A stretch of DNA of 64,000 nt, taken from an uncultured Thermococci archaeon (GTDB lineage: Archaea; CAYQAE01; CAYVLA01). The stretch spans positions 4,896 through 68,895 of the forward strand of contig CAZJVP010000048.1 in the NCBI GenBank assembly GCA_964549615.1. The letters run 5' to 3'. This document shows positions 34,775-55,577 of the stretch, piece by piece (position 1 is the stretch's first letter; the number at the start of each line of letters is the position of its first letter). The position numbers and the translations under genes are program-made. The notes under the pieces were generated by a model. It was given only the letters and a program-made list of their open reading frames with translations. It was not told where the DNA came from and did no database searches.

Positions 34775-35058
34775 ACCGTCTTGAACCTTCTGTCGGGCAA
34801 AGGACCGACGTAGGGCGTGACCGAGACCTTCTCGTTCTTTGAGAGGTTGAAAACCCTGACTATCTCGGGGGCAAGCCCGATGGTCCCTGGCTCCACCTCG
34901 TCCTCGACAATCTTGCCTATGAGCGTCCCTATCTCGAAGTTTATCTGGACCCATTCGCCCGGCTCCAGTCCCATCTTCCTAATATCGTCCACGTTCATCT
35001 TAACTATGTCGCGCATGTAAGCGCTCCTTGCCGCGAACTCAAACACCCGCCCCGACAT
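34771..35058 (-). CDS. Small stand-alone double-psi beta-barrel-like protein (Cdc48/VAT N-domain-like)
   Basis: The pattern [22 protein letters not shown]...[25 protein letters not shown] resembles the two psi-loop halves of VAT-N. A strong SD (GGGAGGAGGG) lies between it and the upstream gene stop. Confidence 0.5.
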
Positions 35059-35073: not shown

Positions 35074-36288
35074 TCACTCCCTCTCGATAAGCTTGGTCAC
35101 CCTTACCTCCTTGTACAGCCGCCTCCTCACCATCAGGCTCCAGAGTAGAAAGCCCGCGACCATCGAGGTGCCGGAGACGACGAGCCATTCTGCCATAAAG
35201 ATCCAGAAAAGAGCCCTGTCCTTTGCTTCCAAGACCTCTTGGGTCATAGCGTCGAGTTCGGCCAAGAGGCTCGACAGCCCGGATCGGCACTCCTCCAGCT
35301 CCTGAACCACGTACTGCTTGTCCACGGCTGCTTTGGCCGCGCCGAGCTCGCCTAGCCTCATCTCAACCTGCCTCAGATTGGCGCCGAACCTGTCGGCGAA
35401 GTCTATCGTCGAGACAAGGTATGTCCTCCTGTAGTGGAACTGGTTGAAGAGCGCCCTTATTTCGTGTACGAGCTCGAGGTCCTGCGGGATGGGGACGCGC
35501 GCCGGGAAGTATATCAGATGCGACAGCACATCGATGTGCCACTTCCAGCGGTAGAAATCGGGCGTGCCGTGCCACTTGTGCACATATGCCACGGACCTCC
35601 CCTCGCCGTAGTCCCAGTAGACGATCACGGGCTTGTTGCGGTTGTAGGGGACCTCCGGGGACATCCTAGCCAAGACTGTGGCGCCTTCCCTCTCCCAGGG
35701 GCGGTTGTGCGCCCATATCCTTATCTCGTGCCAGGGAAGGTTGCGCATCAAGGGATGATCGCGGTACTCCTCCTCAACGATTATGTGGAAGCCGTGCTGC
35801 TCGTAGTATATCGCCGCCTTGTCGTCGACAGGGAGGATGTCCCCGATCGGGTGTAGATACCAAGAGGTGTGTCTGCCGCTGGTCGCAAAGCTCGACGAGT
35901 CGTCAGCCATCAGGAAACCCATGCCCTCGTTCCGGACCCCTTCCTTAACCCAGTTCTGAAAGTCGTCCCGCAGGTGGCTTGCATCCATCCCGTCCTCTAT
36001 GACCACATCAAAATTGTCGTAAAGCGCGCGCTGGCTTCTCGGCAGATACATTCGGAGACACCGGAAAGCCTCCTCGCCCATTGACCACGCGTGAGCCGGA
36101 ACGGGATAGTAGCTGATTCGAGGATCCTGGCTGAGCACGGGGCCTGGGTGTCCAGGGTAGAACCATGCCTTGCCGATGTGAAGCAGGCGAATCACGCCGT
36201 TGGCGTCGGTCCTTGCGTCGAACTCGCCCGATGCCTGGGAAAGTGCGATAGCGATGAGGACCGCAAAGGCGAACAGCCCTTTTCGCAC
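35074..36288 (-). CDS. Uncharacterised secreted, tail-anchored protein, family A paralog 1 (GATase1-like ectodomain suspected)
   Basis: Signal peptide MRKGLFAFAVLIAIALSQASG. Shared blocks with 43206-44429 and 48093-49394: GVIRLLHIG, LRMYLPRS, FDVVIEDG..GMGFLM, STIDFADRFGAN. Then a coiled coil and the C-terminal ALFWIFMAEWLVVSGTSMVAGFLLWSLMVRRRLYKEVRVTK. Confidence 0.8.
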   Translation of the reverse strand: MRKGLFAFAVLIAIALSQASGEFDARTDANGVIRLLHIGKAWFYPGHPGPVLSQDPRISYYPVPAHAWSMGEEAFRCLRMYLPRSQRALYDNFDVVIEDGMDASHLRDDFQNWVKEGVRNEGMGFLMADDSSSFATSGRHTSWYLHPIGDILPVDDKAAIYYEQHGFHIIVEEEYRDHPLMRNLPWHEIRIWAHNRPWEREGATVLARMSPEVPYNRNKPVIVYWDYGEGRSVAYVHKWHGTPDFYRWKWHIDVLSHLIYFPARVPIPQDLELVHEIRALFNQFHYRRTYLVSTIDFADRFGANLRQVEMRLGELGAAKAAVDKQYVVQELEECRSGLSSLLAELDAMTQEVLEAKDRALFWIFMAEWLVVSGTSMVAGFLLWSLMVRRRLYKEVRVTKLIERE

Positions 36289-37261: not shown

Positions 37262-40200
37262 GTGAGCATGGATCTGCCGACGGAGCTCGAACAACTGCAT
37301 GAAATGCTCGAAAGGAGTCTGCTAGCACGCTTGGAGTGGAAATGCATTGGGCTGGACGTGCCCGGCGCCCACAGGGTCGTCTTCGACGACTCCGGTTGGT
37401 CGGGCCAGGGAGCGCTGGCTGGGCGGCTGTGGAACGTCGGGTGGTTCAGGACCCAATTCACCATCCCGGAACTCCTAGACGGCTGTGCCTTGGAGGTTTC
37501 ACCGATCATGGGGGGAAGGAGTCGGGTCTTCGTCAACGGCAGGCTGATCGGGAGTTGCGGTGCCGGCGGCTCGGTGCCGACCCCGAAGGTCAGGGGCGGG
37601 AGTGTCCTCACCCTGGCAATAAGGAACGAGAATGGCTGGATAAGCTATGAAAACCCGTGCCCTGCCACCATCAGGTGTGAGCGTCAGGCAATATTGCTTG
37701 GCATCTTCGAGGAACTCTTCTTCCTCCGGAGACTAGAGCAGGCCGGCGGCCGGGAGAGTTCTGAGATCAGCAGGTGCCTTGAGTCATTCTTGGAAGCGGT
37801 TGATCGGGAGGCGCTTGCCCACGGCCAGATCGATTGTTTCGTCCAGTCCCTCGCCAAGGCACGGGACGCGCTCCTGCCAGCTGCCAATCTATTGAAGCGC
37901 TATACAATCTACGTCGTGCCACATTCCCATGTTGACCTAGCGTGGGGATGGACCTACGAGGAGACGAAGAGGATAATGAGGACGATCTTTGACCGGGCAA
38001 CCGAGCTTCTGGATGATGACCCCAACTATACCTTCGCCCAGGACCAACCGCCGGCTTACAACCACCTAGAGGGAACGGGGCTCATGGAAAAGGTCGCCCG
38101 TTACGTCGGCGAGGGCAGGCTGGACCCCTGCGGGGCGATGTACTCGGAGCCCGAGGGCAACATGCCGTGCGGGGAATCCTTCGTCCGCCAGGTAATGCTC
38201 ACCAAGAGATACTTTCAGGATAGGTTCGGCGCCGACCCGAAGGGGTGCTGGAATCTGGACTCCTTCAGCGGCCATTGCTGGAGCCTCCCCCAGATCCTGA
38301 CGAAATCCGGGGTGCGCTACTACACCTTCGCAAACTGGGGGAACCTCATCCCGGACGTGGAGTTCTGGTGGGAGGGGCCGGACGGATCGCGAGTTCTCGC
38401 CTACCATCTTCCTTGCCACTACGATAGTGCACAGATGATGGAGCACAACAAGATACTCCAAAACTTCTTTGGCTATGCTTCCAGATCCAAATTCAAGCGC
38501 TTCATGTTCCTCGACGGCGATGACCTAACTCCGCCCGTGCGCGACAGCATCGAGGGCGTCAAGTGGTTCAGCCAGTTGGCGGTCGGCCCAACGGTGAAGT
38601 TCTCCACGCCGGCGAAGTTCTTTGAGGATCTGGAGAAGGACGACCTTTCAGCGATCCCCACCTACCGGGGGGAACTCGCCCAGCACCTCGATCCTAACGG
38701 CAGCAACAACGCCGGGTCGTACACCACGCATTGCGAAGTCAAGAGAAGGAACAGGCTCTGTGAGAATCTCCTCCTGACGGCGGAGAAGTTCGGCTCCATC
38801 GCGATGCTTCTTGGAATGGAGTTCCCGAGGGCGCTCATGCAACGGGGATGGGAGGCCGTGCTCCTCAACCAGATGCACGACATCCTGCCCGGTACCGCGA
38901 TCAAGGAAGCCTATGAGGAGGCTCATCGCCGATACGATGAAGCGGAAGCGATCGCGAAGGAGACGATCGCGCTCTCCCTTGGACGGATCTCCGCAAGGAT
39001 CGATACCCGCGGCAAGGGGACGCCGATCGTAGTCTTCAATTCCCTCAGCTGGGAGAGAACCGATGTCGTTGAGGTGAAGGTCACCCTCGATCACACCTAC
39101 AAGGCTTGGCCTAGGATCACCGGGCCCGACGGAGAAGAGGCCGAGTGCCAGGTGCTGCACGACAGCCGGGGAACGTTCGACAAGACCAATAGAAGCATGA
39201 CCATCCTCTTCGTCGCAAGAAAGGTGCCGGCCCTGGGCTACAAGCTCTACCGCCTCACCCTAGACGGCAGGCGCCCACGGTCCGCGGGGAGGGTCTCCAA
39301 GGTGAGCCAGTTCACCCTGCAGAACGAGTATCTGGAAGCCGTGATCGATGCTCAAACCGGCCTCGTCCGATCGCTGAAGCGGGGAGGGCGGGAGTTCATT
39401 TCGGGACCCGAGGGCTTCCTGTTGGTAAGGTACCTAGATAGCGGCGACCCCTGGCACATCAGGCTCGTCGGGGATGCCTCCAAGCTCATACGCGCCCAGT
39501 CGGTGGAACTTGTGGAGGCCGGCCCTGTCCGCACCACGGTGAGGATCTGCAGGAAGGATGGGAACACCCAGATCGTTCAGGAGGTGTCGTTGTGCAAGTC
39601 CGTGCCAAGGCTTACTTGCCGGACGACCTTGGACTGCGGCGACCTTTACGTCCTGTTCAAGGCCTCGGTTCCGGTCAATGTCGGTCCGGCCAAGGCCACC
39701 TTTGAGATACCTTTCAGCACGATCTCCAGAGAGGCCGCGGGCATCGACAGGCCGGCGCAGAACTGGGTTGATTTGTCCGACGGGGAGCGCGGCCTCGCCG
39801 TCCTGAACGATGGCAGGTACGGCTACGACATAGATGGCGGAAGAAGGATCAGGTTAACGTTGCTGAGGAACCCTAAGGGACATCGCTCCAACGAGGGAAC
39901 GGACTCCGGCCCCCACTCAACCTCGCTGGGTCTCTTCCCGCATGAAGGTGACTGGACATCCGGGGTAGTCCGCCAGGGCCTGGAGTTCAACAACCCCCTG
40001 CTCTGCCACGTGGACAGCCCGCACGAAGGCGACCTTCCCACCGCTTTGTCGTTTCTCTCCCTCTCGGCCCCCAATGTGGTGGTGTCCTGCCTTAAGCCCC
40101 ACGAGGACTCCAAAGACCTTGTCCTGCGCATCTATGAGGCCCACGGATCCCGTGTCGACGATGCCGGGATACGGGGCAGGATCGGGTTCGAGGGACTGGA

Positions 40201-40318
40201 GGAGATCGACATGACGGAGAGGGAAACGGTGGGGACGCTTGCTGGGAAGGCACCCGTTGTGCTCTCCCCTTATGAGATCAAGACCTTGAGGATGAAGGCG
40301 CCGCGGATTCGATTTTGA
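37262..40318 (+). CDS. Glycoside hydrolase family 38 alpha-mannosidase
   Basis: GH38 N-terminal catalytic motif YVVPHSHVDLAWGWTYEET, ~1000 aa and no signal peptide. Confidence 0.9.
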   Translation: MSMDLPTELEQLHEMLERSLLARLEWKCIGLDVPGAHRVVFDDSGWSGQGALAGRLWNVGWFRTQFTIPELLDGCALEVSPIMGGRSRVFVNGRLIGSCGAGGSVPTPKVRGGSVLTLAIRNENGWISYENPCPATIRCERQAILLGIFEELFFLRRLEQAGGRESSEISRCLESFLEAVDREALAHGQIDCFVQSLAKARDALLPAANLLKRYTIYVVPHSHVDLAWGWTYEETKRIMRTIFDRATELLDDDPNYTFAQDQPPAYNHLEGTGLMEKVARYVGEGRLDPCGAMYSEPEGNMPCGESFVRQVMLTKRYFQDRFGADPKGCWNLDSFSGHCWSLPQILTKSGVRYYTFANWGNLIPDVEFWWEGPDGSRVLAYHLPCHYDSAQMMEHNKILQNFFGYASRSKFKRFMFLDGDDLTPPVRDSIEGVKWFSQLAVGPTVKFSTPAKFFEDLEKDDLSAIPTYRGELAQHLDPNGSNNAGSYTTHCEVKRRNRLCENLLLTAEKFGSIAMLLGMEFPRALMQRGWEAVLLNQMHDILPGTAIKEAYEEAHRRYDEAEAIAKETIALSLGRISARIDTRGKGTPIVVFNSLSWERTDVVEVKVTLDHTYKAWPRITGPDGEEAECQVLHDSRGTFDKTNRSMTILFVARKVPALGYKLYRLTLDGRRPRSAGRVSKVSQFTLQNEYLEAVIDAQTGLVRSLKRGGREFISGPEGFLLVRYLDSGDPWHIRLVGDASKLIRAQSVELVEAGPVRTTVRICRKDGNTQIVQEVSLCKSVPRLTCRTTLDCGDLYVLFKASVPVNVGPAKATFEIPFSTISREAAGIDRPAQNWVDLSDGERGLAVLNDGRYGYDIDGGRRIRLTLLRNPKGHRSNEGTDSGPHSTSLGLFPHEGDWTSGVVRQGLEFNNPLLCHVDSPHEGDLPTALSFLSLSAPNVVVSCLKPHEDSKDLVLRIYEAHGSRVDDAGIRGRIGFEGLEEIDMTERETVGTLAGKAPVVLSPYEIKTLRMKAPRIRF

Positions 40319-42385: not shown

Positions 42386-43213
42386 CTAGCTCGACTTAGC
42401 GCCGATCCAGTTGATGGCCATGGGGCCAGCGCCGAACCCGGTCTCCGTGGTTACGAACTGGATGATCCCAGCATGGCCAAACATGTACAGCGTGTCGAGG
42501 GTTACCTCCAGATGCACCCTCTCCCCCGCCGAGAGGTCATGGAAATGAAGCATGCCAAACGGGGCCTCGGCGATGCTGGCGCACGGCTCCTCGCCCGGGG
42601 CGGACTTGGACTTGAAGCAGATCGATTCCCTGGGGGATGTGTACCTGATGCTGCTGATGACAGTGTTCCGCGAGAAGAAGAAATCCCTGTACCCGCAGAA
42701 TGTGCTAACCCTGCCTCCCTCGCCGACGAGGAGTGCGTAGACCGTGTAGACCGACCCAAGGATCTCCTCTCCTGCTAGGGCGGCCATAGCGTCGGTGAAG
42801 TCGAAGAGGTACATCTTCCCGCCGAGTTCCAGCTCAAAGACTTGGTATGTCGGCTGTCCACCCAACTGGGCCTGCATGGAGTCGAGGAAGGCCTTTGTCT
42901 CCCTAAACCTAGGCACGTTCGCGATCATGTCCTCAAGACTGCGCCCCGTCGTCTCATTCCACGGCTTGACCAGCGGCACGGAGAGGTTCACTAGGAAATG
43001 AAACCGAACTACTAGGTCCGGAAGGTCGCGGACCGCCATCAAGTCTATGGAGTAGCTAGGCGACCCGGGCACGCCGCCGGGGATGTCGCTAGGCGTGCGC
43101 TGGGCGAGGACCCTGACGACCTCCTTCTCACGGATGCCGAAAGTCAAGAAGGAGACAAGCGTCGTGATGACGAGTATGATTGCAAGGAAGCCCGCCAGGC
43201 GCCGGTCAACCAC
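42386..43213 (-). CDS. Uncharacterised N-terminally anchored membrane protein, family B paralog 1
   Basis: The N-terminus MVDRRLAGFLAIILVITTLVSFL parallels MDRQLIGVLAVSLVAATLVTLI of 49398-50177. The GTG start overlaps the family A stop by 8 nt (GTGGTTGA), and the SD GGGGAGG lies inside the upstream gene. Confidence 0.7.
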   Translation of the reverse strand: MVDRRLAGFLAIILVITTLVSFLTFGIREKEVVRVLAQRTPSDIPGGVPGSPSYSIDLMAVRDLPDLVVRFHFLVNLSVPLVKPWNETTGRSLEDMIANVPRFRETKAFLDSMQAQLGGQPTYQVFELELGGKMYLFDFTDAMAALAGEEILGSVYTVYALLVGEGGRVSTFCGYRDFFFSRNTVISSIRYTSPRESICFKSKSAPGEEPCASIAEAPFGMLHFHDLSAGERVHLEVTLDTLYMFGHAGIIQFVTTETGFGAGPMAINWIGAKSS

Positions 43214-44429
43214 TTAAACCGCCTCCCCTCGTCACCTTGACCTCCCTGTAGAGCCTCCTCTTCACCATCAGCGTCCAGACCACGAATCCGCATATGAGCC
43301 CAGTCGCGCTGACGACGAGCCATTCCGTGATGAAGATCCAGAACAGGGCCAGATCCCTTGCCTCGAGGGCTAGGTCATAGGCCTCCTGAAGCATCCCGAA
43401 GACCTCATCTGCGATCTGCTTGCTCTCCACAAGTTCCAGGTCGACGAAATGCTTCTTGGCTTCCTTCAGCCGCGCGTCGGCTTCCGAGAGCTTCCTGTCG
43501 ACCTTCCTCGTGTCGGCGCCGAACTTGCTGATGAAGTCGATCGTCCCGGTGATCACCTGGGTCTCGTCGTAGACGTCCTTGAAGCGCTGGCGGGTGGCGT
43601 GAAGGAGGTTGATGTCGGAAGGGGGCGTAAGCCCCGCTAGGAAATACACCATATTGCACACGAAGTCAGGATAGTGTTTCCAACGGATGAATCCCCGGCC
43701 AGCGGATCCCCCCCGGAAGCCGGGCGCTGATGCAAAGAACCGGCCCTTGCCCACGTCCCACCAGACCCACCCAGGGTCCCTGAGGCCCACGCCGGTGCCA
43801 CCCAGGCGGATCACCTGCGAGAGCTCGTGCGCACCCTCCTTCAGTTCGACGACGTTGTACCCGCCGAAGACGTTGTGCTGCTCATACTCGTCCCAAGGCA
43901 CGCTGCGTATGAAAGCATCATCTGGAGCCGTGACGACGGTCTTCCCGTCGGGGCCGTATGTGCTTGTGCACTTGACCGGCATCACCTCGCTGAGAACCGT
44001 TGCATCCCACGAGGGGAAGCCGGCACCGCCCCCGAACGACTCAAATCCGCCAGCCATGAACAAGCCAAGCGCGCTGTCCCTGCAGGCGTCGGCCATCCAC
44101 TGGATGGTGTTTGGAGGAAAGGCGTACCACGTCGTATCATCCAAGCCGATGATGTCGCAGCTAGCCACCATGCTGGCCTTGGTCCTGGGCATGTAAAGGC
44201 GCATGGCCCTCTGAACCAGGGTACTTGGAAGGCCGTACATGTTCCCGGCGATGGGCGTCGCGGAGATCAGGGGGTCGAATTTGTAAACCTGGTAAGGGCA
44301 TGCCGCAAACGGCTGCCCGATGTAGATGACCCGGATGACGCCGGTTTCTGGATCGCGCTTCAACTCCTTGCCTGCTGCCGTCGCAAGGAGGAGGATAGCA
44401 CATATGCCCAGAACGGCCCCCGGCCGCAT
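43206..44429 (-). CDS. Uncharacterised secreted, tail-anchored protein, family A paralog 2
   Basis: Signal peptide MRPGAVLGICAILLLATAAG. Blocks GVIRVIYIG, MRLYMPRT, CDIIGLDD..LGLFMAGG and GTIDFISKFGAD, then a coiled coil and the C-terminal ALFWIFITEWLVVSATGLICGFVVWTLMVKRRLYREVKVTR. Confidence 0.8.
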   Translation of the reverse strand: MRPGAVLGICAILLLATAAGKELKRDPETGVIRVIYIGQPFAACPYQVYKFDPLISATPIAGNMYGLPSTLVQRAMRLYMPRTKASMVASCDIIGLDDTTWYAFPPNTIQWMADACRDSALGLFMAGGFESFGGGAGFPSWDATVLSEVMPVKCTSTYGPDGKTVVTAPDDAFIRSVPWDEYEQHNVFGGYNVVELKEGAHELSQVIRLGGTGVGLRDPGWVWWDVGKGRFFASAPGFRGGSAGRGFIRWKHYPDFVCNMVYFLAGLTPPSDINLLHATRQRFKDVYDETQVITGTIDFISKFGADTRKVDRKLSEADARLKEAKKHFVDLELVESKQIADEVFGMLQEAYDLALEARDLALFWIFITEWLVVSATGLICGFVVWTLMVKRRLYREVKVTRGGGLSG

Positions 44430-44456
44430 TGGTCCGAAAACACGCCGATTTGTCGA

Positions 44457-44466
44457 TTTAAATATT
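44457..44466 (-). promoter_or_regulatory. TATA box for family A paralog 2
   Basis: The minus strand reads AATATTTAAA, centred about 32 nt upstream of the ATG at 44429. Confidence 0.45.
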
Positions 44467-44577
44467 CCGGCAATGATATGATGACTGGAAGCGAAGGACA
44501 GCCGGTCTGCCCGGTGCTGCCGCGGCCGTTGAACGGCTAGGCACCCCCCGGGCTTGTTCCTCGGCAGAGGCCCATCC

Positions 44578-44934
44578 TCACTGGATCAGCTCCGCAAACA
44601 GCGCCCTAACCAGCCCCTTTTCCGATCTTCCCGCGCGAAGGGCGCGAAGCACTGAGTTCGCAAGATCGTCCAGCGACACCCTGGTTACCACCTCGTAGTA
44701 GAGAGGATCGATCTTGACCCTTGTAACGATTCTGCAAGGGACCGGTACGACGGTGTACGCATCAACGCCATAGCTGGAGGGGACGTCCGGAATCCGGCGC
44801 ATCAACAGCCTCCCGGCCTCCTTCGAGAGCGACGCCGCTATGTCGTCGCGGATCAGAAGGTTGTGGCGAAGCCCGGCGACGAACTCCCGGATCCGCAACT
44901 CACGGTCAATGAGGATGTCCATGACATCGCCCAT
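44578..44934 (-). CDS. Hypothetical protein (start uncertain)
   Basis: Protein-like from MGDVMDILIDRELRIREFVAGL... to ...VRALFAELIQ. The longer ORF-track version (to 45141) begins with an Arg/Ser-rich low-complexity region. Confidence 0.35.
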   Translation of the reverse strand: MGDVMDILIDRELRIREFVAGLRHNLLIRDDIAASLSKEAGRLLMRRIPDVPSSYGVDAYTVVPVPCRIVTRVKIDPLYYEVVTRVSLDDLANSVLRALRAGRSEKGLVRALFAELIQ

Positions 44935-45366
44935 CCTCCTTTCCCTCCGGTCAAGGACCCATCCTGGGCTCTTTGATTCGAAACCGTCCTGGGGCGGCAT
45001 TGTGGTAGCGTTCGGCACCACGAATGAGTCTCCCCTGAGCTGGGCGAGCCTAGCATCCAGGTACACGGTTCTTGATCGGAGGAGTGATCTCTGACGGGCT
45101 CGAAAGCACCATGCCCTCAGGCTAGATCCTGAGAATATCACGTCCCCTATCCTCGCCTTGCCGTGCCTGCGCGCCGACAGCAGGCTTCTGACCGAGATCA
45201 GATCGGAAGGATGTTCGGACGACGTCCGGCCCCGCTCCGACGAATCGTTTTGGCAACAGCCGGATAACGGTTTCGGTCCTTGGAGCTGCTGCGGAGGCTG
45301 GGAATCTACGCCGTCAGGGGTGGAAAATTATATCAGAAGGACGCCAGATCGAGCGGGCAGGTCCAA

Positions 45367-45612
45367 ATGGCCGATGACCAACAGACCTGCCCGAAGTGCG
45401 GCGTCCCGATGCCCGTGGCAGACCAGATGATGCTCGTCGAGCCCAAGCACATCAGGATCGTCCTTCTATACCGGTGTCCGGAGTGCGGGACGACCGTGGA
45501 CTGGAAGGCACGGGTCGAAAAAGGAAAGATGCCGTGGGTGAGGAAGACCGTCTACCGTGGTGAGTCGCTAGGCTTCGCGTTTCCCAAGAAAACGGCCAAA
45601 CCAGAGGCTTGA
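45367..45612 (+). CDS. Small zinc-ribbon protein
   Basis: CPKCG ... CPECG pairs; 81 aa from the ATG at 45367. Confidence 0.5.
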   Translation: MADDQQTCPKCGVPMPVADQMMLVEPKHIRIVLLYRCPECGTTVDWKARVEKGKMPWVRKTVYRGESLGFAFPKKTAKPEA

Positions 45613-45747
45613 GGAATCAGGCCCAGCCTGAGCAAAGTCCGCGTCAGCCGCATCCGCCCTGTCTTCGCTTGACCCGCGATGTCCTTGCCTTGGAGGCCAA
45701 TCACGCTCGTTTCCATTTTTCAAAGCCTCTGATGTCGCGATGGCTCG

Positions 45748-46779
45748 ATGCGACCGGCCATTCAGCCGAGCATATGCCATGTCCGACCGGGCTCGCGCCA
45801 GCAATTCATCGTCAGCGGCCTCGAATCCCTTGGTCCCACCTGGCTTGTCGACGGGATAGCTGGAGGAAATCGTCGGGTCGGCACCATCACCCCCGAGGGA
45901 TTGTACTCCTCTCCGTCAACCCCACCAAGGGGCGAGATCGTAATCGAGGCACGCCTCGACCGAGGAAGCACGAAGGCGGCCTGGGCCACAGTGCTCTTCG
46001 ATTCCCTGTCTCCGTTCTACCGCCATGCAGGCTTCTGGAAAGCAAGGATCGACGAGGAGCGATGCATCTCCTCGGCACACGGCATCTGCATGGACGGCGC
46101 CGACCGGATCCTGATAGTGGACACGAGCTTGTCCAGAATATTCCGCTTCACGTCCAAGGTCAAGTTCCTGGGAGAGATAGGGTCGGGAAAAGGCCCGGAA
46201 CCCGGGCAGCTCGACGGGCCGCGGCACGCAAAGGTCAGCCCCTCCGGTGAGGTCTACGTGGCCGACGGCAACAACGGACGCGTCCAAGTTTTCGACCGGG
46301 ATGGGCAGTTCCTACGTTCATGGGCCAGGAAGGGAAAGGGGGAAGGCGAGCTGCTCCGTCCGCACGCCTTGGACCTCGCCCCCGACGGCTCCGTATTCGT
46401 CGTCGATGTCGACAACAGCAAGGTCGTCGCATACGACCAAGAGGGCCGCCTGCTATGCAGCTGGGGACGGCACGGCACTGGTCCGGGCGACTTCTGGGCG
46501 CCGCACAGCTTAGCGGTGGACCCGAACGGCGATGTATTCGTGGCGGAGTACTTCGGGCGTGTCCAGAAGTTTACCCCGCAGGGGCGGTGCATCGCACGCT
46601 TCGCCAACCCTTTTCGCGACGGCCAGCGCACCCACGGAGACTACAGGTACCATGCCATGAACTGCGATTCCCGGGGGAACGTGTATCTCATGGCTCGAGA
46701 TAGCCTGGCGGGTATGGCGAAAAGCGTTGATAAGTACAACAACAGCGGGGATTTCGTCACGAGATTGAAGGCTCCTTAG
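45748..46779 (+). CDS. NHL-repeat beta-propeller protein with N-terminal Ig-like segment
   Basis: Repeats GRVQVFDRDGQFLRSWARKG, SKVVAYDQEGRLLCSWGRHG, GRVQKFTPQGRCI and PHALDLAPDGSVFVVD. No signal peptide seen. Confidence 0.85.
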   Translation: MRPAIQPSICHVRPGSRQQFIVSGLESLGPTWLVDGIAGGNRRVGTITPEGLYSSPSTPPRGEIVIEARLDRGSTKAAWATVLFDSLSPFYRHAGFWKARIDEERCISSAHGICMDGADRILIVDTSLSRIFRFTSKVKFLGEIGSGKGPEPGQLDGPRHAKVSPSGEVYVADGNNGRVQVFDRDGQFLRSWARKGKGEGELLRPHALDLAPDGSVFVVDVDNSKVVAYDQEGRLLCSWGRHGTGPGDFWAPHSLAVDPNGDVFVAEYFGRVQKFTPQGRCIARFANPFRDGQRTHGDYRYHAMNCDSRGNVYLMARDSLAGMAKSVDKYNNSGDFVTRLKAP

Positions 46780-47322
46780 GGGCAACCGCGGATGGTGTGC
46801 GAGGCCGCGGCCACAGGTAACGCGGGCACCCTCTTCGTCGCAGGTTCTTCCAATGAGCAGGCCGGAGTTTCTATCTTCGTTCCCTGTTAGCAGTAAGCGA
46901 AAGAACGGCGCGTGAAGATGCGAGGATGCCCCGACTCCAACGCCGACCACTGAGCTCGAGCCTTGTCGTGACGAGATGCGGTGTTTGAGAATCTTGGCAC
47001 GCTTGGGGTAGCAAATGTCGTTGCCGCGCGAGTCGACTAGCTGCCTTGCGGCGGGTGCATCTCGTCGGGTAGTTTACCGCGGTTGGCCGGACTCCGCAGT
47101 TGCGGCGCGGCGATCTCAAGCCGTGGTCGGCCCCCACTTGGTGCCCCGGGCGGCCTAACGGAGGATCAAGACTTAGTGCCCCGCGGCCGCGAGCGCTCCC
47201 GAGGCGTCCATTCGGGCAACCGTTTGGGACATGTGGCCCCGGGAATAGCACCTGCGCATCCGGGGCAATAGAACGCTTCGGACGTTGTCCGCGAAGGTTT
47301 AAGAACTCAGCGATGCAGTTGG

Positions 47323-47946
47323 TTGCGGAGAGAGAGGTCAATGGATCTCAATACTCTAACGAACTTCGTGCTCTTGATCTGTCTCGTTATCTTCATCGTC
47401 GTCCTCGCCTATCGGGCCTTGTCCGGTTTTGCCGCCAGGCCGCGATACCCAAGGGCCCAGCCGGCGACGGTTCGCTACATTGGAAGGGCGGCAGGGACGG
47501 AGCCGCAGGTTCTTGAGGAGCAAGTCGCCGAGAAGGAAGCTCTTGCTCCGGAGGAACCGCCGATGTCTGTGGAAGCCACGATTCCACAGGAGCCCACGCT
47601 GGTGCAGCGTCCGGTCGCCGCGCAACACGCGCCCGGGCCCCGAAGAGCCACAGTTTTTCCCTCCATACTCGCAACCGAGCTTCTGTCCCGCGCTGCTGAC
47701 GAAGACGCGGAGGAGATCCAAAGGATCGCCAAGGAGCTCGTTGACTACTGCGTGGTTCGCGGGAGCGCCGCCAACGTCAGGCCGGAGGTTCTCGAAAAGC
47801 TTGCGGTTCAGTTCGCAACCTTGGAGGTGGCCGTCAGGAAGGCATCCATCGGCGCGGACGGGGAGGCACGCCCAGTCCCGGATGACCTGCGGTCAGATCT
47901 TTTCCGTGAGGCGTTCCGGCTTTTGGCGTCGCAGGCCAAGCGCTGA
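47323..47946 (+). CDS. Hypothetical membrane-anchored protein
   Basis: TM FVLLICLVIFIVVLAY followed by an acidic/helical soluble region. First gene of a long co-directional series. Confidence 0.45.
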   Translation: MRRERSMDLNTLTNFVLLICLVIFIVVLAYRALSGFAARPRYPRAQPATVRYIGRAAGTEPQVLEEQVAEKEALAPEEPPMSVEATIPQEPTLVQRPVAAQHAPGPRRATVFPSILATELLSRAADEDAEEIQRIAKELVDYCVVRGSAANVRPEVLEKLAVQFATLEVAVRKASIGADGEARPVPDDLRSDLFREAFRLLASQAKR

Positions 47947-48061
47947 GGCGGACGAAGAACGCGATCGACCTTCGCTGGCTACGGGGGATTTCGATTCCCA
48001 TAACCGCAGAACAGTCGTTGACGAGAGCAAACCGTACCATGGGGCTATCAAGCTGCACATC

Positions 48062-48069
48062 ATTTTTAG
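48062..48069 (+). promoter_or_regulatory. TATA-like box for family A paralog 3
   Basis: ATTTTTAG, centred about 28 nt upstream of the GTG at 48093. Confidence 0.4.
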
Positions 48070-48092
48070 GTCAAGGCTGAGTTCCGGAGACC

Positions 48093-49394
48093 GTGGACGC
48101 CGAGACCCGGACCTGGGCCGGACAGATAGCCGTTTCCCTGCCTTGGCGAACCTGCGCACCTCTCTTCAAGCCTAGGCACGTGGCCGGGTTCCTTGTTATC
48201 TGGGTCTTGGTCGGAGTGTCCCCGGCCCGCAGCGCGCCCGCCGAGCGGATCAAGATCATACTCACCGGCAGGGCGTACGAGGGCTCCCTGATGAGGAACT
48301 GGTTCGTAAACGAACCCATGGCGGATCCCATCGCGATACCGACCCGCGATGTTCCGGGCGGGATTGAGGAGGGCAGGCGGTACGTCAGGATGTACTTCCC
48401 TCGAACCTACGAGCGGCTTGCGGAATGCGACTTCGTGATCTTCGAGGGAACCGAGATGGTGCACTTCTCGCACACGCAACAGAAGTGGCTACATGATGCC
48501 ATAAGGGACCATGGCATGGGTGGCCTGAACTCCAGGAGCGTGCTGAGCGCCGTTTACTATGGCCAGTGGATTGCATCCGTGACCCAGCTGGCCTTCCCCA
48601 ACGACGTTGACGCCGTCATCGCGGGTCCGGGGTGGAAGTTCGGCCAGACCATGGAGATAGTGCTGAACGATGACCCGAGCCTCAGGCCAGTCCTTCTCAT
48701 GTTCAAGGACAAACCCATCAAATGGAAGCTTACAAACTACGACGCGATGGTCGTCGTTCCGAGACCCGGTGCCACGATCTGGTCCTGGATCAAAGGACCG
48801 TTCCCGGAGCTTTCGATCCCATGGCCGGGGTACACGCCGCACTTGATCTCTTGGACGTATGGCAACGGAACGACCTGGACCTGCCATGACAGGACAGTCA
48901 ACTGGTGGCAGGACATTCGCGATGCAAATCCATACGGGCTGGACATGATAATGAACATGATCCTCTACAGCACCGGGAGGGATCTTCCCCAGGACATAGA
49001 CCTCATTCATTCGATTCGAAGGCGGTTCACCGAGTTTGGGACGAGGAAAACGCTCGTCATCTCGACGATCGAGCTCGGACAGAAATTCGGTGCAAGCATG
49101 ACGCGAGCGGAGGCGAGCTTAACGGAGCTGGAGAAGCTTTACCTCGCGGCCAGGGAGGCCTATGTGGAGCAGAGGGAGGTCGAGGCCTCCGATCTCGTTA
49201 ACCGGCTCATAGAGGGCTCAAGACATGCCAACGAGGTGGCCATGGAGGAACTCAACCGGGCCCTGCTGTGGATCCACGTCATCAACTGGCTCGTGGTGTG
49301 CGGCACGTTCATGGCCTCTGGGTTCGTGCTCTGGAGCCTGATGGTCAGAAAGAAGCTCTACAGGGAAGTGGCGTCGACGCGGCTGGGAGGCTAG
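48093..49394 (+). CDS. Uncharacterised secreted, tail-anchored protein, family A paralog 3
   Basis: Hydrophobic N-terminal segment VAGFLVIWVLVGVSPARSAPA. Blocks ERIKIILTG, VRMYFPRT, CDFVIFEG..HGMGGLN and STIELGQKFGAS, then a coiled coil and the C-terminal ALLWIHVINWLVVCGTFMASGFVLWSLMVRKKLYREVASTR. Confidence 0.8.
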   Translation: MDAETRTWAGQIAVSLPWRTCAPLFKPRHVAGFLVIWVLVGVSPARSAPAERIKIILTGRAYEGSLMRNWFVNEPMADPIAIPTRDVPGGIEEGRRYVRMYFPRTYERLAECDFVIFEGTEMVHFSHTQQKWLHDAIRDHGMGGLNSRSVLSAVYYGQWIASVTQLAFPNDVDAVIAGPGWKFGQTMEIVLNDDPSLRPVLLMFKDKPIKWKLTNYDAMVVVPRPGATIWSWIKGPFPELSIPWPGYTPHLISWTYGNGTTWTCHDRTVNWWQDIRDANPYGLDMIMNMILYSTGRDLPQDIDLIHSIRRRFTEFGTRKTLVISTIELGQKFGASMTRAEASLTELEKLYLAAREAYVEQREVEASDLVNRLIEGSRHANEVAMEELNRALLWIHVINWLVVCGTFMASGFVLWSLMVRKKLYREVASTRLGG

Positions 49395-49397
49395 GGG

Positions 49398-50177
49398 TTG
49401 GACAGGCAGCTCATCGGCGTGTTAGCGGTGTCTCTGGTGGCCGCGACATTGGTCACGCTCATTGCGGCGGCGGAGAAGGAAAGGATTCTGGTCTCGGGGG
49501 TTTTCTGCCCGGAGTACATGGCGCAGTCGAGCGCCGAGTACTGCTTCGGCGTAAGCTTCATCACGACTCGGAACCTTGCGGATGTTGAGGTCCGGGCTTG
49601 CACCCTTTCAGGCCTGACGCCGGAATCGTTTGGTCTGAAACCCGACGAGCAGGATCCCGAGCTCTACCCGCCTATCAGTATCCTCAGGGAGGAATCATCC
49701 CGGTTGGGCGTCGAGATCCAAGCTAGCCGGTTCGAGCTCAACGGTGACTCATCGTCGCAGCAGATCGTCTACTACGATTTTCTCCCGCTGTTGGAACGTC
49801 TCTTCATCGATCCGGCGCGCTTGCCGCTTGGTCGGATCACAACCTGCTATGGTTTCTTCCGCCGAGCGGGGAAGCTTGAGACTTGTTTCAAGGGTAGCGG
49901 TGAGATCTTTCCGGCTGAAAGCTCCTCGCTCAACAAGATCCTCGTAGAGGTGGACGGGCGCCCGCGGTACGGCTGGGAGAGAGGCACTGGCCCTGAGAGG
50001 CAGGCGCGAGGGATCAGAGTGGGAGAGGTTACCAAGGGCAGCCGAGTGGACGTCCTGTATTACATAGACGGACGGTGGGCGAGAGTGGGATCGCTACTTT
50101 GGAAGCTGGACGTGATTGCGGGAGGCGAGGTCCTCTACTCGAGGGTGCGTCTTATCAACGTGGCCGGCTCTGCCTAG
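49398..50177 (+). CDS. Uncharacterised N-terminally anchored membrane protein, family B paralog 2
   Basis: The TTG start lies 3 nt after the family A stop, with the SD GGGAGG inside the upstream gene. N-terminal TM as in 42386-43213. Confidence 0.65.
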   Translation: MDRQLIGVLAVSLVAATLVTLIAAAEKERILVSGVFCPEYMAQSSAEYCFGVSFITTRNLADVEVRACTLSGLTPESFGLKPDEQDPELYPPISILREESSRLGVEIQASRFELNGDSSSQQIVYYDFLPLLERLFIDPARLPLGRITTCYGFFRRAGKLETCFKGSGEIFPAESSSLNKILVEVDGRPRYGWERGTGPERQARGIRVGEVTKGSRVDVLYYIDGRWARVGSLLWKLDVIAGGEVLYSRVRLINVAGSA

Positions 50178-50582
50178 CCGCCGACGCGGTTTGGACAAGC
50201 GCTTGTCCTCTGCCTTGCGTCGAGCTGGGCGAAAAACCAGGCAAAATGCTTCTCTCGGCTCTGCCAGCCGTGTTAGGTAAAGGGACATATGTTACACTTT
50301 TCCGCCTCCCCGCTCCGGCGGCCTTCCACCGAGCGATCAAGTTTGGTATGCCCATCGATGCACAGGGCTCCGAACAAAATATTCGGGAGGCGGGTTGAGT
50401 CCTTTCTCTCCTCCGGGGAGGAAGAAACCTCAAGAAGTCAGTCCGCCCATTCGAGATATTCGGTCGCGGGCCGGAGCGCCATGACTCCCCATGACTCCTC
50501 GGACTGAGGCATGGAGAGTCCTCTGCAGAGTGTAACATATGTGGGTTTACCCAACACTCGGCTCTGCCTGCCAGCCGAAATG

Positions 50583-50590
50583 CTTTTAAG
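50583..50590 (+). promoter_or_regulatory. TATA-like box for the second FG-GAP gene
   Basis: CTTTTAAG lies about 35 nt upstream of the ATG at 50622. Confidence 0.4.
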
Positions 50591-50621
50591 TGCGCATACT
50601 CAGTGGATAGGCGGCGGTTCC

Positions 50622-52079
50622 ATGAGAGGTTCAACCAAGGGAATTGCCTTTGCAGCAGGACTTGCAGCGGTGCTGGCGATTCTTATGCCCTCAGCGTTGG
50701 CACTGCCAAAGATGAGGGTCAAATGGACGTTCAACGTCACGCCGATAGTCTCGACGGGCTTCGCATGGACGATCGTCTTGCAGGCAGACCTCGACGGAGA
50801 CGGAATGCTAGAGACGGTCCTAGGGACGGAGAAGGGCGGCAGAATGGTCGCGGTTGGTCCAACGGGAAAGCTGGTCTGGGTCTTCCCACCCCTGGACTCG
50901 GACATAGTTCCACAGCTCATAAACAAGGTGCCCTCGATCGATGACATCGATGGCGATGGCAAGCCGGAAGTACTCTTCGGCTGGGGTGCGGCCCCCAACG
51001 GCGCGGTGTACTGCATCAACTGGGACGGAAAGCTTAAGTGGGTGTGGACCGACCCTGAGGGGCAGGCGCATTTCAGGTACGGAGGAACGCTTGCCAGGGA
51101 CTTCGACGGCGACGGAAAGAAGGAGGTCGTGGCGGCCGGGAGCGATGCCAAAGTCTACATGTTTAGCCATACGGGCCAGCTCAAGTGGGTCAAGTTCCTT
51201 CCACCAGGGAGGGCCGTGGACAGCATGATCAATGCTTTCGACGTTGACCGTGACGGCGAGTTGGAGATCCTTGCGTTCTCGCGGTCCCTCGGGGAGGGCC
51301 CGGGAACGGAGGGCGGCTTGAACGGCGTCTTCTACTGCCTGAGCAAGGATGGTCAGGAGAAGTGGACCTGGAGTTCCCCGGGCTGGACCGACTGGCTCCA
51401 CAACATGCCCACGGTGGCGGACGTCAACGGCGACGGTGAGTATGAGATCGTTTTCGGTCTCTGGAGGCTCGACTCAGGCGACCGGGGCGGAATAGTCATA
51501 CTCAGCTTCTACGGAACGGAGATCGCAAGGAAACAGGTGGCCAGCGGCAACGTAGCGCACAATGCCATGTTGGCCGACATCGACGAGGATGGCAGGTTCG
51601 AAATACTCATCGGCATCAGAGCCGGGCTCTACTACTGCTTCCATCCCGACCTGAAGGAGAAGTGGGCCTTCAACATCACAAAGATCATCGGGCAGGTCGG
51701 CAGGCCTGTCAACATGGGTGGGGCCTTGGGCGATGTGACGGGCGACGGCAAGATAGACGTAGTCTTCCAGAGCTGGAACAACAACACGATCTTCGTCTTG
51801 GACAGGTTTGGAAACCTCGCCGCTGAGCCCTACAACCTCAAAGTCGACGCGACGGGCTCGGTTGCGATCGGAGACATCGATAAGGACGGCAAGTCGGAGA
51901 TCGTCGCATTCGCAGGACCAATCCTATACTGTCTGACCTTGGATGCGCCATACAATGCCAAGACATTCGTCTGGCCGATGTACGGCAAGGATGCTGCCAA
52001 CACCGGAGCAGTCCCCATACCAGAGGCGTTGATAGGGTTGCTAGCCCTGTTGGCCGTGCCGCTTCTGCGCAAGCGGTAG
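50622..52079 (+). CDS. Secreted FG-GAP/VCBS-repeat beta-propeller protein with C-terminal tripartite anchor/sorting-like signal
   Basis: Signal peptide MRGSTKGIAFAAGLAAVLAILMPSALA. Eight repeats (ADLDGDGMLETVL, DDIDGDGKPEVLF, RDFDGDGKKEVVA, FDVDRDGELEILA, ADVNGDGEYEIVF, ADIDEDGRFEILI, GDVTGDGKIDVVF, GDIDKDGKSEIVA). The protein ends ...GAVPIPEALIGLLALLAVPLLRKR. Confidence 0.85.
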   Translation: MRGSTKGIAFAAGLAAVLAILMPSALALPKMRVKWTFNVTPIVSTGFAWTIVLQADLDGDGMLETVLGTEKGGRMVAVGPTGKLVWVFPPLDSDIVPQLINKVPSIDDIDGDGKPEVLFGWGAAPNGAVYCINWDGKLKWVWTDPEGQAHFRYGGTLARDFDGDGKKEVVAAGSDAKVYMFSHTGQLKWVKFLPPGRAVDSMINAFDVDRDGELEILAFSRSLGEGPGTEGGLNGVFYCLSKDGQEKWTWSSPGWTDWLHNMPTVADVNGDGEYEIVFGLWRLDSGDRGGIVILSFYGTEIARKQVASGNVAHNAMLADIDEDGRFEILIGIRAGLYYCFHPDLKEKWAFNITKIIGQVGRPVNMGGALGDVTGDGKIDVVFQSWNNNTIFVLDRFGNLAAEPYNLKVDATGSVAIGDIDKDGKSEIVAFAGPILYCLTLDAPYNAKTFVWPMYGKDAANTGAVPIPEALIGLLALLAVPLLRKR

Positions 52080-52087
52080 GCCAACAC

Positions 52088-52100
52088 TTTTCTTTTTTCT
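52088..52100 (+). terminator. T-rich tract after the FG-GAP gene
   Basis: TTTTCTTTTTTCT starts 9 nt after the stop at 52079. Confidence 0.4.
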
Positions 52101-52124
52101 GAAGCCTTTCCAGGTGAGATGTGA

Positions 52125-53390
52125 ATGACGGAGTCAGGGCCCCACAAGAGCATCCTCATTCTTTGGGCGTTCACGTTGATTCTCAGCATCGCCGGCTGTT
52201 CCGGCGCTAAGGTCTTCACCCAGAGGAACGGGCTGGCGGGCCAGAAGGTAGCGGTCGTCGCGGGCAGCCCGGAGACGGTCTGGGTCTACAGTTACTATCA
52301 GATTCCGTCGGGAACAGGCTTCGAGGTCATAGGTGGCGTCAGCGAGTTCAAAGCATTGGGAAACTGGACGACGTACACGAAGGATGACGGCCTGGCAAGC
52401 GCAGTGGTCTACAGCATTGCCATAGATGGTAAGTCGGTCTGGTTTGGCACAGCAGACGGGGCGAGCCTGTTTGACAAGTCGAAGGGCACCTGGCGAACCT
52501 TCAAGACCGCGGATGGGCTGGTCTCAAACGACGTCTTGTCCATCGCAGCCGGGCCGGACAAGGTATGGCTCGGCACCAAACAAGGCGTGTCGGTATACGA
52601 AAAGGCCTCTGGCAAGTGGAGTTCGCTCACCGAGGAGGACGGGCTCATCTTCAGGTACGTCAGGGACATCGCTTTGGACGGCGACGTGGCGTACTTCGCG
52701 ACGAGCAAGGGCGTCAGTAGATTTGACTCGGCGACCGGCGAGTGGCAGTCGATAACGAAGGACAACGGCCTTAAAGACAACATGGTCAACTGCATCGTGG
52801 TTGGGTTCGATTCGATCTGGTTTGGAACGCCGGCAGGCGTCTGCCGTCTTGAGAAGGCGACGGGCAGCTGGACATACTACGGTGAGGGCGAGGGTCTGTC
52901 CCCAGAGGGAGTATCGGCAGCGGCAATCGGGAAGGATGCAGTCTGGTTCCTTACCGGGAAGGAGGTTGCGAGCTTTATGCCTGCCAAGCAGAAGTGGAGG
53001 ATCTATAGCGAGGGCCTATCGGAGACCCAGCTCAACGATATCGCTGTGGGAAAAGGGTATGTCTGGGTCGCGACAAACAACGGGTTGATCCGACTGGGCG
53101 GCGGCTTCTCTGCGTTGCACATAGTGATGCTAGCAGTAGTGGTCTGTGCCGCGATCGGATCCGTGTATGCCCTTCGCGGCCGTCGACGGGCCGGAGCCAA
53201 AGCGGAGGAACCGAGGAGGAAGGCACCCGAGCGTCCGCCGTACGCCGCGTGCGGGGGCCAGCCATCGGCGCAAAACTGCCCGCGCTGCAAGTACAACGTT
53301 CTCAGCGGCGGAAGCCTGTATTGCAGCAAGTACGGCAAGAAGGTTGACTACGGACGTCCAGGGAAAGGCCAGGAACCCGCCCCGCCGTAG
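52125..53390 (+). CDS. Two-component-regulator-propeller (Reg_prop)-repeat protein with TM helix and cytoplasmic zinc ribbon
   Basis: Repeats VWFGTADGASLFDKSKGTWRTF, VWLGTKQGVSVYEKASGKWSSL, AYFATSKGVSRFDSATGEWQSI, IWFGTPAGVCRLEKATGSWTYY and VWVATNNGLIRL. TM ALHIVMLAVVVCAAIGSVYAL and tail CPRCKYNVLSGGSLYCSKYG. Confidence 0.8.
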   Translation: MTESGPHKSILILWAFTLILSIAGCSGAKVFTQRNGLAGQKVAVVAGSPETVWVYSYYQIPSGTGFEVIGGVSEFKALGNWTTYTKDDGLASAVVYSIAIDGKSVWFGTADGASLFDKSKGTWRTFKTADGLVSNDVLSIAAGPDKVWLGTKQGVSVYEKASGKWSSLTEEDGLIFRYVRDIALDGDVAYFATSKGVSRFDSATGEWQSITKDNGLKDNMVNCIVVGFDSIWFGTPAGVCRLEKATGSWTYYGEGEGLSPEGVSAAAIGKDAVWFLTGKEVASFMPAKQKWRIYSEGLSETQLNDIAVGKGYVWVATNNGLIRLGGGFSALHIVMLAVVVCAAIGSVYALRGRRRAGAKAEEPRRKAPERPPYAACGGQPSAQNCPRCKYNVLSGGSLYCSKYGKKVDYGRPGKGQEPAPP

Positions 53391-53607: not shown

Positions 53608-53628
53608 ATGGATATACTATCCAAGATC

Positions 53629-54657
53629 ATGCACAAAACTATTCCCTCCTTGATTGCCTGCCTCGCGATCTGTCTTGCGTCAAGCTGCTGGGCCCAGACT
53701 TTCCCCATAGGTCCCGATGACCCGATCGTCGTCAAGGCGCTCGCCTACATTGCCGCCCACCAGAACCCCGATGGCGGTTTCGGCCAGATGGGCGAAAGCG
53801 ATCTTTCCACCACCAGCAGGGTCGTGGAGGCCCTGGCGGCTGCTGGTAAGGACCCCACGAGCTACGTGGTGAATGGGATGGGCCCCGACGACTATATGCT
53901 TTTGGTCTCCAAGTCCGTGTACGAGGGCACCCTAGGCACGAATCCGGTTGCGGACAAGATCAACATCCTTCTCGGCCTGGCCGCCTGCAAGTTGAACCCC
54001 CGCGATTTCGGTGGCAGGGACCACGTCCAGTCCCTTCTATCCATGCAGAATGAGTCAACCGGCGCCTTCGGCAGCGGCCCCATGGATACTGCATACGCAA
54101 TACTTGCATTGATGGCCTCCGGCGTGCCGGCAGACCACCCAGCCCTGCAGAAGGCACGATCCTACATCGAAGAAAGCCAACTGCCCGGCGGTGGGTTCGA
54201 GCTTTTCCCGGGGTGGGGCCCGGACTCCAACGTCATTTGCGTGGTCATCGTCTGCCTTAGGCAGATGGGCGTGCGAGGCGAGACCTTCCAGAAAGCCGTC
54301 TCGGCGCTCCCCGCCTTCCAGAGCCCGTCCAACCGTGGCTTCTTCTGGATGGACAGCCCGGACCCGTCCTCGACCGCGCTGGGCATACAGGCAATACTCG
54401 CGGCTGGCGGTGATCCTCGCCAACCGCCTTGGGGCGAGGGAGGAGAGAATCCGGTCAAGTATCTGCTCAGCACCTTCAACGCCACAACGGGCGAGTTCTT
54501 CGATCCATGGGGCAGCTTGAGGCCCACGGCCTTGGCGGTGCCGGCAATCCTAGGACGCCTCACGCCGGGCATCAATATTTCGGAGTCGGCGGTCCTCTGC
54601 TCGATTCCCGCCTTGTTAGCGGTGCTCCTCAGGTTCAACGGTGCAAATCGTGAATAG
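53629..54657 (+). CDS. Secreted prenyltransferase/squalene-oxidase-repeat-like alpha/alpha-toroid protein with C-terminal TM
   Basis: Signal peptide MHKTIPSLIACLAICLASSCWA. Toroid-type repeats YIAAHQNPDGGFG, LLSMQNESTGAFGS, YIEESQLPGGGFE, FQSPSNRGFFW and STFNATTGEFFD. C-terminal hydrophobic AVLCSIPALLAVLLRF. Alternative start at 53608. Confidence 0.75.
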   Translation: MHKTIPSLIACLAICLASSCWAQTFPIGPDDPIVVKALAYIAAHQNPDGGFGQMGESDLSTTSRVVEALAAAGKDPTSYVVNGMGPDDYMLLVSKSVYEGTLGTNPVADKINILLGLAACKLNPRDFGGRDHVQSLLSMQNESTGAFGSGPMDTAYAILALMASGVPADHPALQKARSYIEESQLPGGGFELFPGWGPDSNVICVVIVCLRQMGVRGETFQKAVSALPAFQSPSNRGFFWMDSPDPSSTALGIQAILAAGGDPRQPPWGEGGENPVKYLLSTFNATTGEFFDPWGSLRPTALAVPAILGRLTPGINISESAVLCSIPALLAVLLRFNGANRE

Positions 54658-55576: not shown

Positions 55577-55577
55577 G

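Follow-up and report, generated by a model that had tools for sequence, protein, structure and literature searches.

Two archaeal gene cassettes that pair a tail-anchored with an N-terminally anchored membrane protein: candidate operons of a lineage-specific surface module

We analyzed a 64,000-nucleotide (nt) stretch of DNA from an uncultured Thermococci archaeon (contig CAZJVP010000048.1, positions 4,896 to 68,895 of the forward strand), referred to here as the window. At two places in it, a gene of a family that we call A is followed immediately by a gene of a second family, B. The window has a GC content of about 0.60, and a thermosome gene and RPA genes within it mark it as archaeal. The genome to which it belongs (G000) is 3.21 Mb long, 99.5% complete and derived from hot-spring metagenome DNA. 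Five species genomes sample the phylum: G000 to G003, which represent the family of the window, and G004, the fifth, which is 98% complete. The features of the window with which we are concerned are the following.

43206..44429, minus strand: A2, 407 amino acids (aa), with a signal peptide, a PF07090 head, a three-helix stalk, a C-terminal transmembrane (TM) helix and a short basic tail.
42386..43213, minus strand: B1, 275 aa, with a TM helix at residues 4-26 and a beta-sandwich ectodomain carrying an alpha/beta insert.
43206..43228, minus strand: A2/B1 junction, with GGGGAGG at 43228-43222, an 8-nt spacer, the B1 start codon GTG at 43213-43211 and the A2 stop codon TGA at 43208-43206.
48093..49394, plus strand: A3, 433 aa (from GTG 48093) or 404 aa (from GTG 48180), a divergent A paralogue.
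49398..50177, plus strand: B2, 259 aa, a divergent B paralogue on a long branch.
49385..49400, plus strand: A3/B2 junction, with GGGAGG at 49385-49390, the A3 stop codon TAG at 49392-49394, a 3-nt gap and the B2 start codon TTG at 49398-49400.
35074..36288, minus strand: A1, 404 aa, an A paralogue with no B gene downstream; an unrelated 95-aa open reading frame (ORF) comes next.

An earlier, sequence-only reading of this region had described an 8-nt overlap of A2 with B1 and a 3-nt gap between A3 and B2, each with a Shine-Dalgarno (SD)-like run of G residues in the tail of the A gene, and both descriptions were confirmed by reading the junctions base by base. The 3' end of A2 on the minus strand reads ACG AGG GGA GGC GGT TTA AGT GGT TGA. 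The octamer GTGGTTGA (43213-43206) is common to the end of A2 and the start of B1, and the GGGGAGG upstream of B1 falls within Arg-Gly-Gly codons of A2. The GGGAGG of the second cassette sits 7 nt 5' of the B2 TTG, inside the A3 tail. The 16S rRNA of G000 ends in GGAUCACCUCCU; an anti-SD sequence is therefore present, with which the G-runs at both junctions could pair. The start of A3 is ambiguous (48093-48182): GTG 48093 adds 29 residues ahead of the hydrophobic signal region, and the next in-frame GTG is at 48180. The ORF behind A1 (34771-35058, minus strand) is not B-like and gave weak Molydop_binding- and CDC48_N-type matches (E 1e-4 and 7.5e-3).

The ORFs of G000 were called in six frames, and members of A and B were collected with purpose-built, iterated hidden Markov models (HMMs). 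This census returned 149 A ORFs, of which 126 were at least 380 aa long, and 31 B ORFs; A takes up roughly 5% of the 3.2-Mb genome. A B gene was scored as adjacent when its start lay between -120 and +60 nt from the 3' end of an A ORF on the same strand, and the level expected by chance was obtained from 2000 random relocations. The results showed that 13 of the 31 B genes follow an A gene in this manner, against a relocation mean of 0.115 and a maximum of 2. The same arrangement was found in the relatives, for at least 16 of 39 B genes in G001 (17 with the B2 orthologue), 7 of 17 in G002 and 8 of 22 in G003; the count for G001 is a lower bound because 150 of the 231 A candidates there were scored. 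When starts were set by the family N-terminus, each of the 13 cassettes of G000 had a plausible B start within -16 to +31 nt of the A stop codon, in most cases after a purine-rich run. A programmed frameshift giving an A-B fusion was rejected, because the frames and gaps of the junctions vary among cassettes.

The A2-B1 pair is orthologous in the relatives; in G001 and G002, A has an identity of 64-69%. Where the two genes meet, they overlap by 11 nt in G001 and by 1 nt (TGATG) in G002 and abut directly in G003, with AGGGGAGGA-like codons upstream in every case. A search of metagenome contigs with B1 yielded one locus, whose B protein is 76% identical to B1. It repeats the GTGGTTGA overlap, an A anchor is encoded before it and, as in the window, a class I (Trp/Tyr-type) tRNA synthetase gene follows B. 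The pair and its junction are thus kept in three genera and on one metagenome contig. The orthologue of B2 in G001 (55% identity) lies 2 nt behind an A gene. Taken together, these junctions have the marks of a coupled operon: stop and start overlap or lie a few nt apart, an SD-like run precedes the start, and the orthologues keep this geometry.

Other orientations of A and B also occur in G000: three pairs are convergent, two are divergent, and in one case B precedes A. The convergent pairs argue that the linkage is kept even where co-translation is impossible. The convergent pairs at C87:10255-12311 and C91:6203-8364 overlap by 4 nt at their 3' ends. The 13 pairs of G000 have diverged widely, with identities of 21-49% among their A proteins and 15-42% among their B proteins. 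A genes with a B gene are scattered on a FastTree tree of the 126 A proteins, 10 changes accounting for 12 labelled genes in a count made with no shuffle control. Two cassettes at C88, whose A proteins are 49% and B proteins 42% identical, look like a recent block duplication. With the exception of these two, the A-B linkage is old and maintained and does not consist of recent block copies. The sequence-only reading depended on B ORFs being conserved, and this part of it stood: they are conserved, and our survey found B genes directly behind A genes in each of the four genomes that represent the family. Both A (searched with A2) and B were present in these four genomes and in none of 37 other archaeal genomes (G004 and 36 more). 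As far as searched, the module is confined to one family of a small archaeal phylum.

A third family, C, was met as the gene that comes after most of the B genes lacking an A gene, and has 16 ORFs in G000. C proteins are about 320-385 aa long and are built of a signal peptide, an alpha/beta head, a short helical stretch and a C-terminal membrane helix of their own. The best score of C against PF06283 (ThuA) was 18.9 bits (E 0.002), in one of five C proteins, below the gathering cut-off of 33.4, and the C profile matched the A head marginally over 178 columns (probability 52.8%, E 1.4e-4). These profile matches suggest that C is a small family distantly akin to A. Of the 16 C genes, eleven come immediately after a B gene with gaps of -4 to +5 nt, two immediately before one, one is divergent from a B gene and two lie apart; random relocation gave a mean of 0.02 for the B-to-C arrangement, against the 11 observed. 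A C gene follows B in 17 of 25 cases in G001, 7 of 10 in G002 and 9 of 12 in G003, and adjoins B in 21 of 25, 10 of 10 and 10 of 12 cases, respectively. C was sought in G000 to G004 only and was not found in G004. The complete order A-B-C is present at four loci of G000. Neither cassette of the window carries C: B1 is followed by a class I (Trp/Tyr-type, PF00579) tRNA synthetase gene, and B2 by the gene of an FG-GAP protein. Examples of C outside the window are L027:392-1378, L056:458-1477, L052:500-1504 and L036:2380-3531, all on the minus strand.

When A and C are considered together, 26 of the 31 B genes of G000 touch one or both of them (A only, 12; C only, 7; both, 7). The corresponding totals in the relatives, tallied by hand from coordinates, are 35 of 39 in G001, 16 of 17 in G002 and 17 of 22 in G003. 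A C neighbour is clustered on the B tree, requiring 6 changes against a shuffle mean of 9.9, and a value as low was reached in 2 of 500 shuffles. A single protein, P0032 (639 aa), joins the two families in one chain: C with its TM helix, a linker of 17 aa, and then the B TM helix and the B domain. Its C part is 54% identical to a C gene of G000, and P0032 as a whole is the orthologue of separate genes there, C followed by B, at C54:23086-25119. The layout of P0032 suggests that both ectodomains lie on the same, outer side of the membrane. Two further proteins, G001:C28 (L068:919-2460, minus strand) and P0038, carry a B module with a C-terminal GDPD domain (PF03009, 3.2e-48), showing that B is able to act as a pedestal on the membrane. 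We conclude that B is the hub of a three-family module, and that an A-B unit alone is too narrow a description.

The sequence-only reading had recognized neither family. This held for B and did not hold for A: A2 (31.3 bits) and A1 (28.0 bits) pass the gathering cut-off of 27 bits of PF07090 (GATase1_like, formerly DUF1355). A3 has no Pfam match of its own and belongs to the A HMM set; it aligns with A2 from end to end at 25% identity (E 3e-34). By sequence, A2 matches the structure 3soz in the PDB (E 7.7e-7), and also 3rht and 2gk3. The AlphaFold2 model of A2 (pLDDT 88.1) consists of a signal-like helix (3-18), an alpha/beta head (32-264), three long helices (273-390), the last of which contains the membrane span, and a short disordered tail. 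Foldseek placed the head with 3soz, 2gk3 and 3rht (E 3.1e-10 to 5.1e-10, prob 1.00, TMt 0.67-0.70), and next with the ThuA-like structures 1t0b and 4e5v and the GIFT domain of IFT52, 5fmr (E 5e-6 to 5e-5). The catalytic Cys-His-Glu triad of class I glutamine amidotransferases is not conserved in A: the invariant and near-invariant columns of a 17-sequence A alignment include no Cys or His, which makes a working amidotransferase unlikely. Judging from these columns, a role for A in binding or scaffolding is more likely than amidotransferase activity. The titles and abstracts listed in literature searches on PF07090, DUF1355 and GATase1-like proteins held nothing on archaea.

B1 and B2 matched no Pfam or NCBIfam family; none of 45 B members gave a Pfam match below E 0.03, and the best PDB profile match was at E 0.19. 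The two proteins had been described as kin whose likeness is greatest at the N-terminus, and the comparison bore this out (23% identity, E 2e-4, top match at the N-terminus); both belong to the 31-member family, in whose tree they form long branches. B1 has 20 other homologues in the databases, at 44-76% identity, and B is scarce worldwide, with 125 cluster representatives among 1.84 billion at E <=0.001. The AlphaFold2 model of B1 (pLDDT 90.4, pTM 0.82) shows a helix (4-26), a short linker, a beta-sandwich (33-76 and 186-270) and an alpha/beta insert. Structure searches with it returned generic immunoglobulin-like, adhesin and pilin sandwiches, the best Z of 8.4 being in the common range, together with weak archaellin matches. 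The models of A2 and B1 agree with the opposite anchoring proposed earlier, C-terminal in A and N-terminal in B. We infer for B a type II (N-in, C-out) topology, with its ectodomain, which is probably glycosylated, on the outside. Several other leads on B came to nothing. The B alignment offered no conserved stretch that could serve in a search for related loci. DUF4340 (PF14238) was rejected as its identity, since 0 of 45 B members matched it and the top match genome-wide (E 0.29) was not a B gene. A match of B1 to a Lachnospiraceae metagenome-assembled genome, over 45 residues in a search of genome contigs, was judged spurious, and the top score in a Protein Atlas search (0.75) was to an unnamed archaeal cluster and gave no lead.

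N-glycosylation sequons separate the three families. We counted N-x-S/T sites and compared them with within-protein shuffles. The 126 A proteins have 24 sequons against about 119 expected, and 108 of them have none. The deficit is found in the heads (22 vs 94 +/- 8.6 expected) and in the stalks (2 vs 25 +/- 4.4). In contrast, B ectodomains have 83 sequons against 27 +/- 4.9 expected and C heads 44 against 17.5 +/- 3.1, an enrichment of 2.5- to 3-fold; all other long ORFs have 1850 against 1374 expected. At the loci from relatives the counts were 0 against 8.9 for A (9 proteins) and 83 against 32 for B (24 proteins). Within the window, sequons are absent from A2, A1 and B2, and A3 has a single one and B1 two; B2 is the sole full-length B protein of G000 without one. 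G000 contains three STT3/AglB-type matches. Avoidance of sequons would be pointless for an A protein that never met the glycosylation enzyme, and on that ground all three families are read as extracellular. Going by these counts, B and C are probably glycosylated, whereas A appears to be kept bare.

How might these observations be explained? We give an even chance to the explanation that the cassettes are conserved small operons of a lineage-specific A-B-C module, in which B is the common partner of GATase1-headed, tail-anchored surface proteins. A and B would be carried on one mRNA. With the B start on or just past the A stop and behind an SD-like run in the A tail codons, ribosomes terminating on A may re-initiate, so that re-initiation at the end of A would yield B and, at the end of B, would yield C where it is present. 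Such coupling would deliver matched amounts of A and B to the same membrane site, where the anchor helices, C-terminal in A and N-terminal in B, may insert side by side and the ectodomains associate. B would be partnered by a protein drawn either from A, a very large family, or from C, a small one, and the window contains the A-B form only. Our data show the families, their folds, how often the genes adjoin, that the junctions are kept and how the families differ in sequons; we infer that the genes are co-transcribed and translationally coupled, that B lies on the outside and that the proteins bind.

Several observations weigh against the explanation by coupled operons. About 113 of the 126 full-length A genes have no B gene behind them, so A-B cannot be the general state of family A. 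Nor does a hidden B seem to account for this: the 110 downstream ORFs that are neither A nor B formed no cluster larger than two, and none matched the B or C profiles below E 0.16. The sequence-only reading, which would have been undone by A genes lacking B neighbours, fared badly here, and what we observe is that B is the partner of about one A gene in ten. A-A and B-B identities of the pairs correlate weakly (Spearman 0.18, a value reached in 319 of 5000 permutations), and on the B tree an A neighbour is unclustered, with 9 changes against a shuffle mean of 9.1. The fusion P0032 is the lone member of its cluster, on one 3.7-kb contig, and a lost stop codon is possible. A search of proteins of 525-2000 aa gave no B relative and no A-B fusion, a blank that is weak evidence. 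The charge at the B helix leaves its orientation unsettled (K+R 1.6 before and 2.5 after), and the anchor of C differs from that of A, so that B cannot contact both of them through one shared TM motif.

Much of the same evidence would also suit surface proteins that are co-expressed for one process, such as the capture or handling of glycans, and that do not bind each other. The adjacency and junction data fit this too, and the weak co-evolution of A and B, the many A genes that stand alone, the enzyme that the B module carries by itself in the B-GDPD fusions (G001:C28 and P0038), and the GH38 and GH127 genes of the window in a genome rich in glycoside hydrolases all agree with it. However, overlaps kept across genera and linkage in several orientations are more typical of subunits, and the single C-B fusion points to close proximity. 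On balance we consider co-expression with no mutual binding unlikely, though far from negligible. An idea that goes further than the coupled-operon explanation is a combinatorial surface-receptor system, in which a glycosylated hub B, sometimes with C, would dock interchangeable bare heads drawn from some 126 A proteins. On this view, coupled A and B genes would be hard-wired pairs, and other A proteins would use B in trans. Such a system seems improbable to us, and equally so its corollary that the A heads, with their GIFT/GATase1 fold, are kept free of glycans by selection, either to read the glycans of partners or of the environment or to pack protein to protein.

We also weighed the possibility that B belongs among the type IV pilin-like proteins: its class III signal peptide would be cut by prepilin peptidase behind the conserved small residue, and B would assemble into a fibre or bindosome-like structure on the surface, holding or presenting A and C. 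At the position equivalent to Gly8 of B1, 24 of 30 paralogues have G, 3 have A and 3 have S, with a short charged stretch before it and 15-19 uncharged residues after it; Foldseek lists the archaellins 8cwm (E 1.9e-4, prob 0.98) and 9eq7; and G000 has one Peptidase_A24 gene. In class III signal peptides, however, K or R is usual at position -2, whereas B has a hydrophobic or variable residue (A, I, V or L) immediately ahead of G/A/S, with the Arg 4-5 places upstream. The archaellin TM-scores were 0.11-0.25 with a root-mean-square deviation (rmsd) of 18-19 A overall (8cwm, TMq 0.25, rmsd 18.6 A), and no type IV pilin or archaellin was among the 50 matches listed by VIA-align, which is independent of Foldseek. 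The helix of the B1 model has 23 residues and is not packed against the domain, and no pilus assembly gene was seen within the window. A pilin-like B is, in our view, improbable. Finally, B and C might have no functional link to A and simply ride along with it through block duplication in an A-rich genome. A is indeed abundant (149 ORFs in 3.2 Mb), and the two C88 cassettes look like one such recent event. Relocation, however, gave 0.115 A-to-B and 0.02 B-to-C arrangements against the 13 and 11 seen, and the pairs are anciently diverged yet still adjacent, with orthologous pairs and junctions kept across three genera; this explanation is strongly disfavoured, and we give it very little chance.

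The surroundings of the cassettes are a glycan-handling and surface-protein neighbourhood. The window encodes a GH38 alpha-mannosidase (37262-40318, plus strand), a GH127 beta-L-arabinofuranosidase (61905-63773, minus strand), an FG-GAP/other beta-propeller protein (50511-53390, plus strand) and an NHL-repeat protein (45748-46779, plus strand). An ECF-type transporter cluster (54641-58677, plus strand) comprises a DUF4430 protein, CbiQ, a double ABC ATPase and an S component, and is preceded by the gene of a prenyltransferase/squalene-cyclase-like repeat protein (53608-54657). A tRNA-Lys(CTT) gene at 16602-16692 (minus strand) is long, at 91 nt, and may carry an intron.

Since A occupies about 5% of the genome, its role is likely to be central to how this hot-spring archaeon meets its surroundings. 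The analysis shows that a subset of A genes is hard-wired to B, a family with no Pfam, NCBIfam or PDB sequence match. Avoidance of sequons across a whole family of 126 members is unusual, and the sequon contrast and the pairing together provide handles, indicating which pairs to co-express and which protein to expect glycosylated. If the complex is real, it would represent a new archaeal surface architecture, in which a type I and a type II membrane protein are made by coupled translation.

Several known systems resemble the module in part. The class III signal-peptide proteins of archaea include type IV pilins, archaellins and the sugar-binding proteins of the Sulfolobus bindosome. B is like them in its short charged N-terminus, small residue, hydrophobic helix and beta-sandwich domain, and differs in having no K or R directly ahead of the small residue, in its poor structural scores and in the lack of assembly genes nearby. 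In bacteria, GldG-like genes may be neighboured by DUF4340 genes, and the idea is alike, in that a membrane protein of GATase1 fold comes first and a beta-rich protein anchored at its N-terminus second, although B has no DUF4340 match. No canonical GldG (PF09822) scored above the cut-off in G000; the GldG papers listed in our literature search dealt with gliding motility only, and none of those listed concerned DUF4340. The SlaA and SlaB genes of Sulfolobales are adjacent, co-transcribed surface-layer (S-layer) genes, one product of which combines a coiled-coil stalk with a C-terminal TM anchor, and their products form a heteromeric surface structure. Like A and B, they are an adjacent pair of archaeal surface-protein genes; no relation in sequence or fold was seen, though none was tested for. 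Unlike SlaA and SlaB, both partners are membrane-anchored here, the families are multi-copy (126, 31 and 16 members), and nothing shows a lattice.

The closest relatives of the A head itself, in both sequence and fold, are the solved members of PF07090: 3soz (STM1381), 2gk3 (STM3548) and 3rht (from Planctomyces limnophilus). The ThuA-like proteins and the GIFT domain of IFT52 and GldG have the flavodoxin-like GATase1 fold in common with it, and GIFT domains have been proposed elsewhere to bind sugars. The solved PF07090 proteins are single domains of about 250 aa annotated as cytoplasmic, whereas in A the head is preceded by a signal peptide and followed by a three-helix stalk and a conserved anchor at the C-terminus. 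Unlike them, A has expanded to about 126 copies, a subset of which has a coupled B gene.

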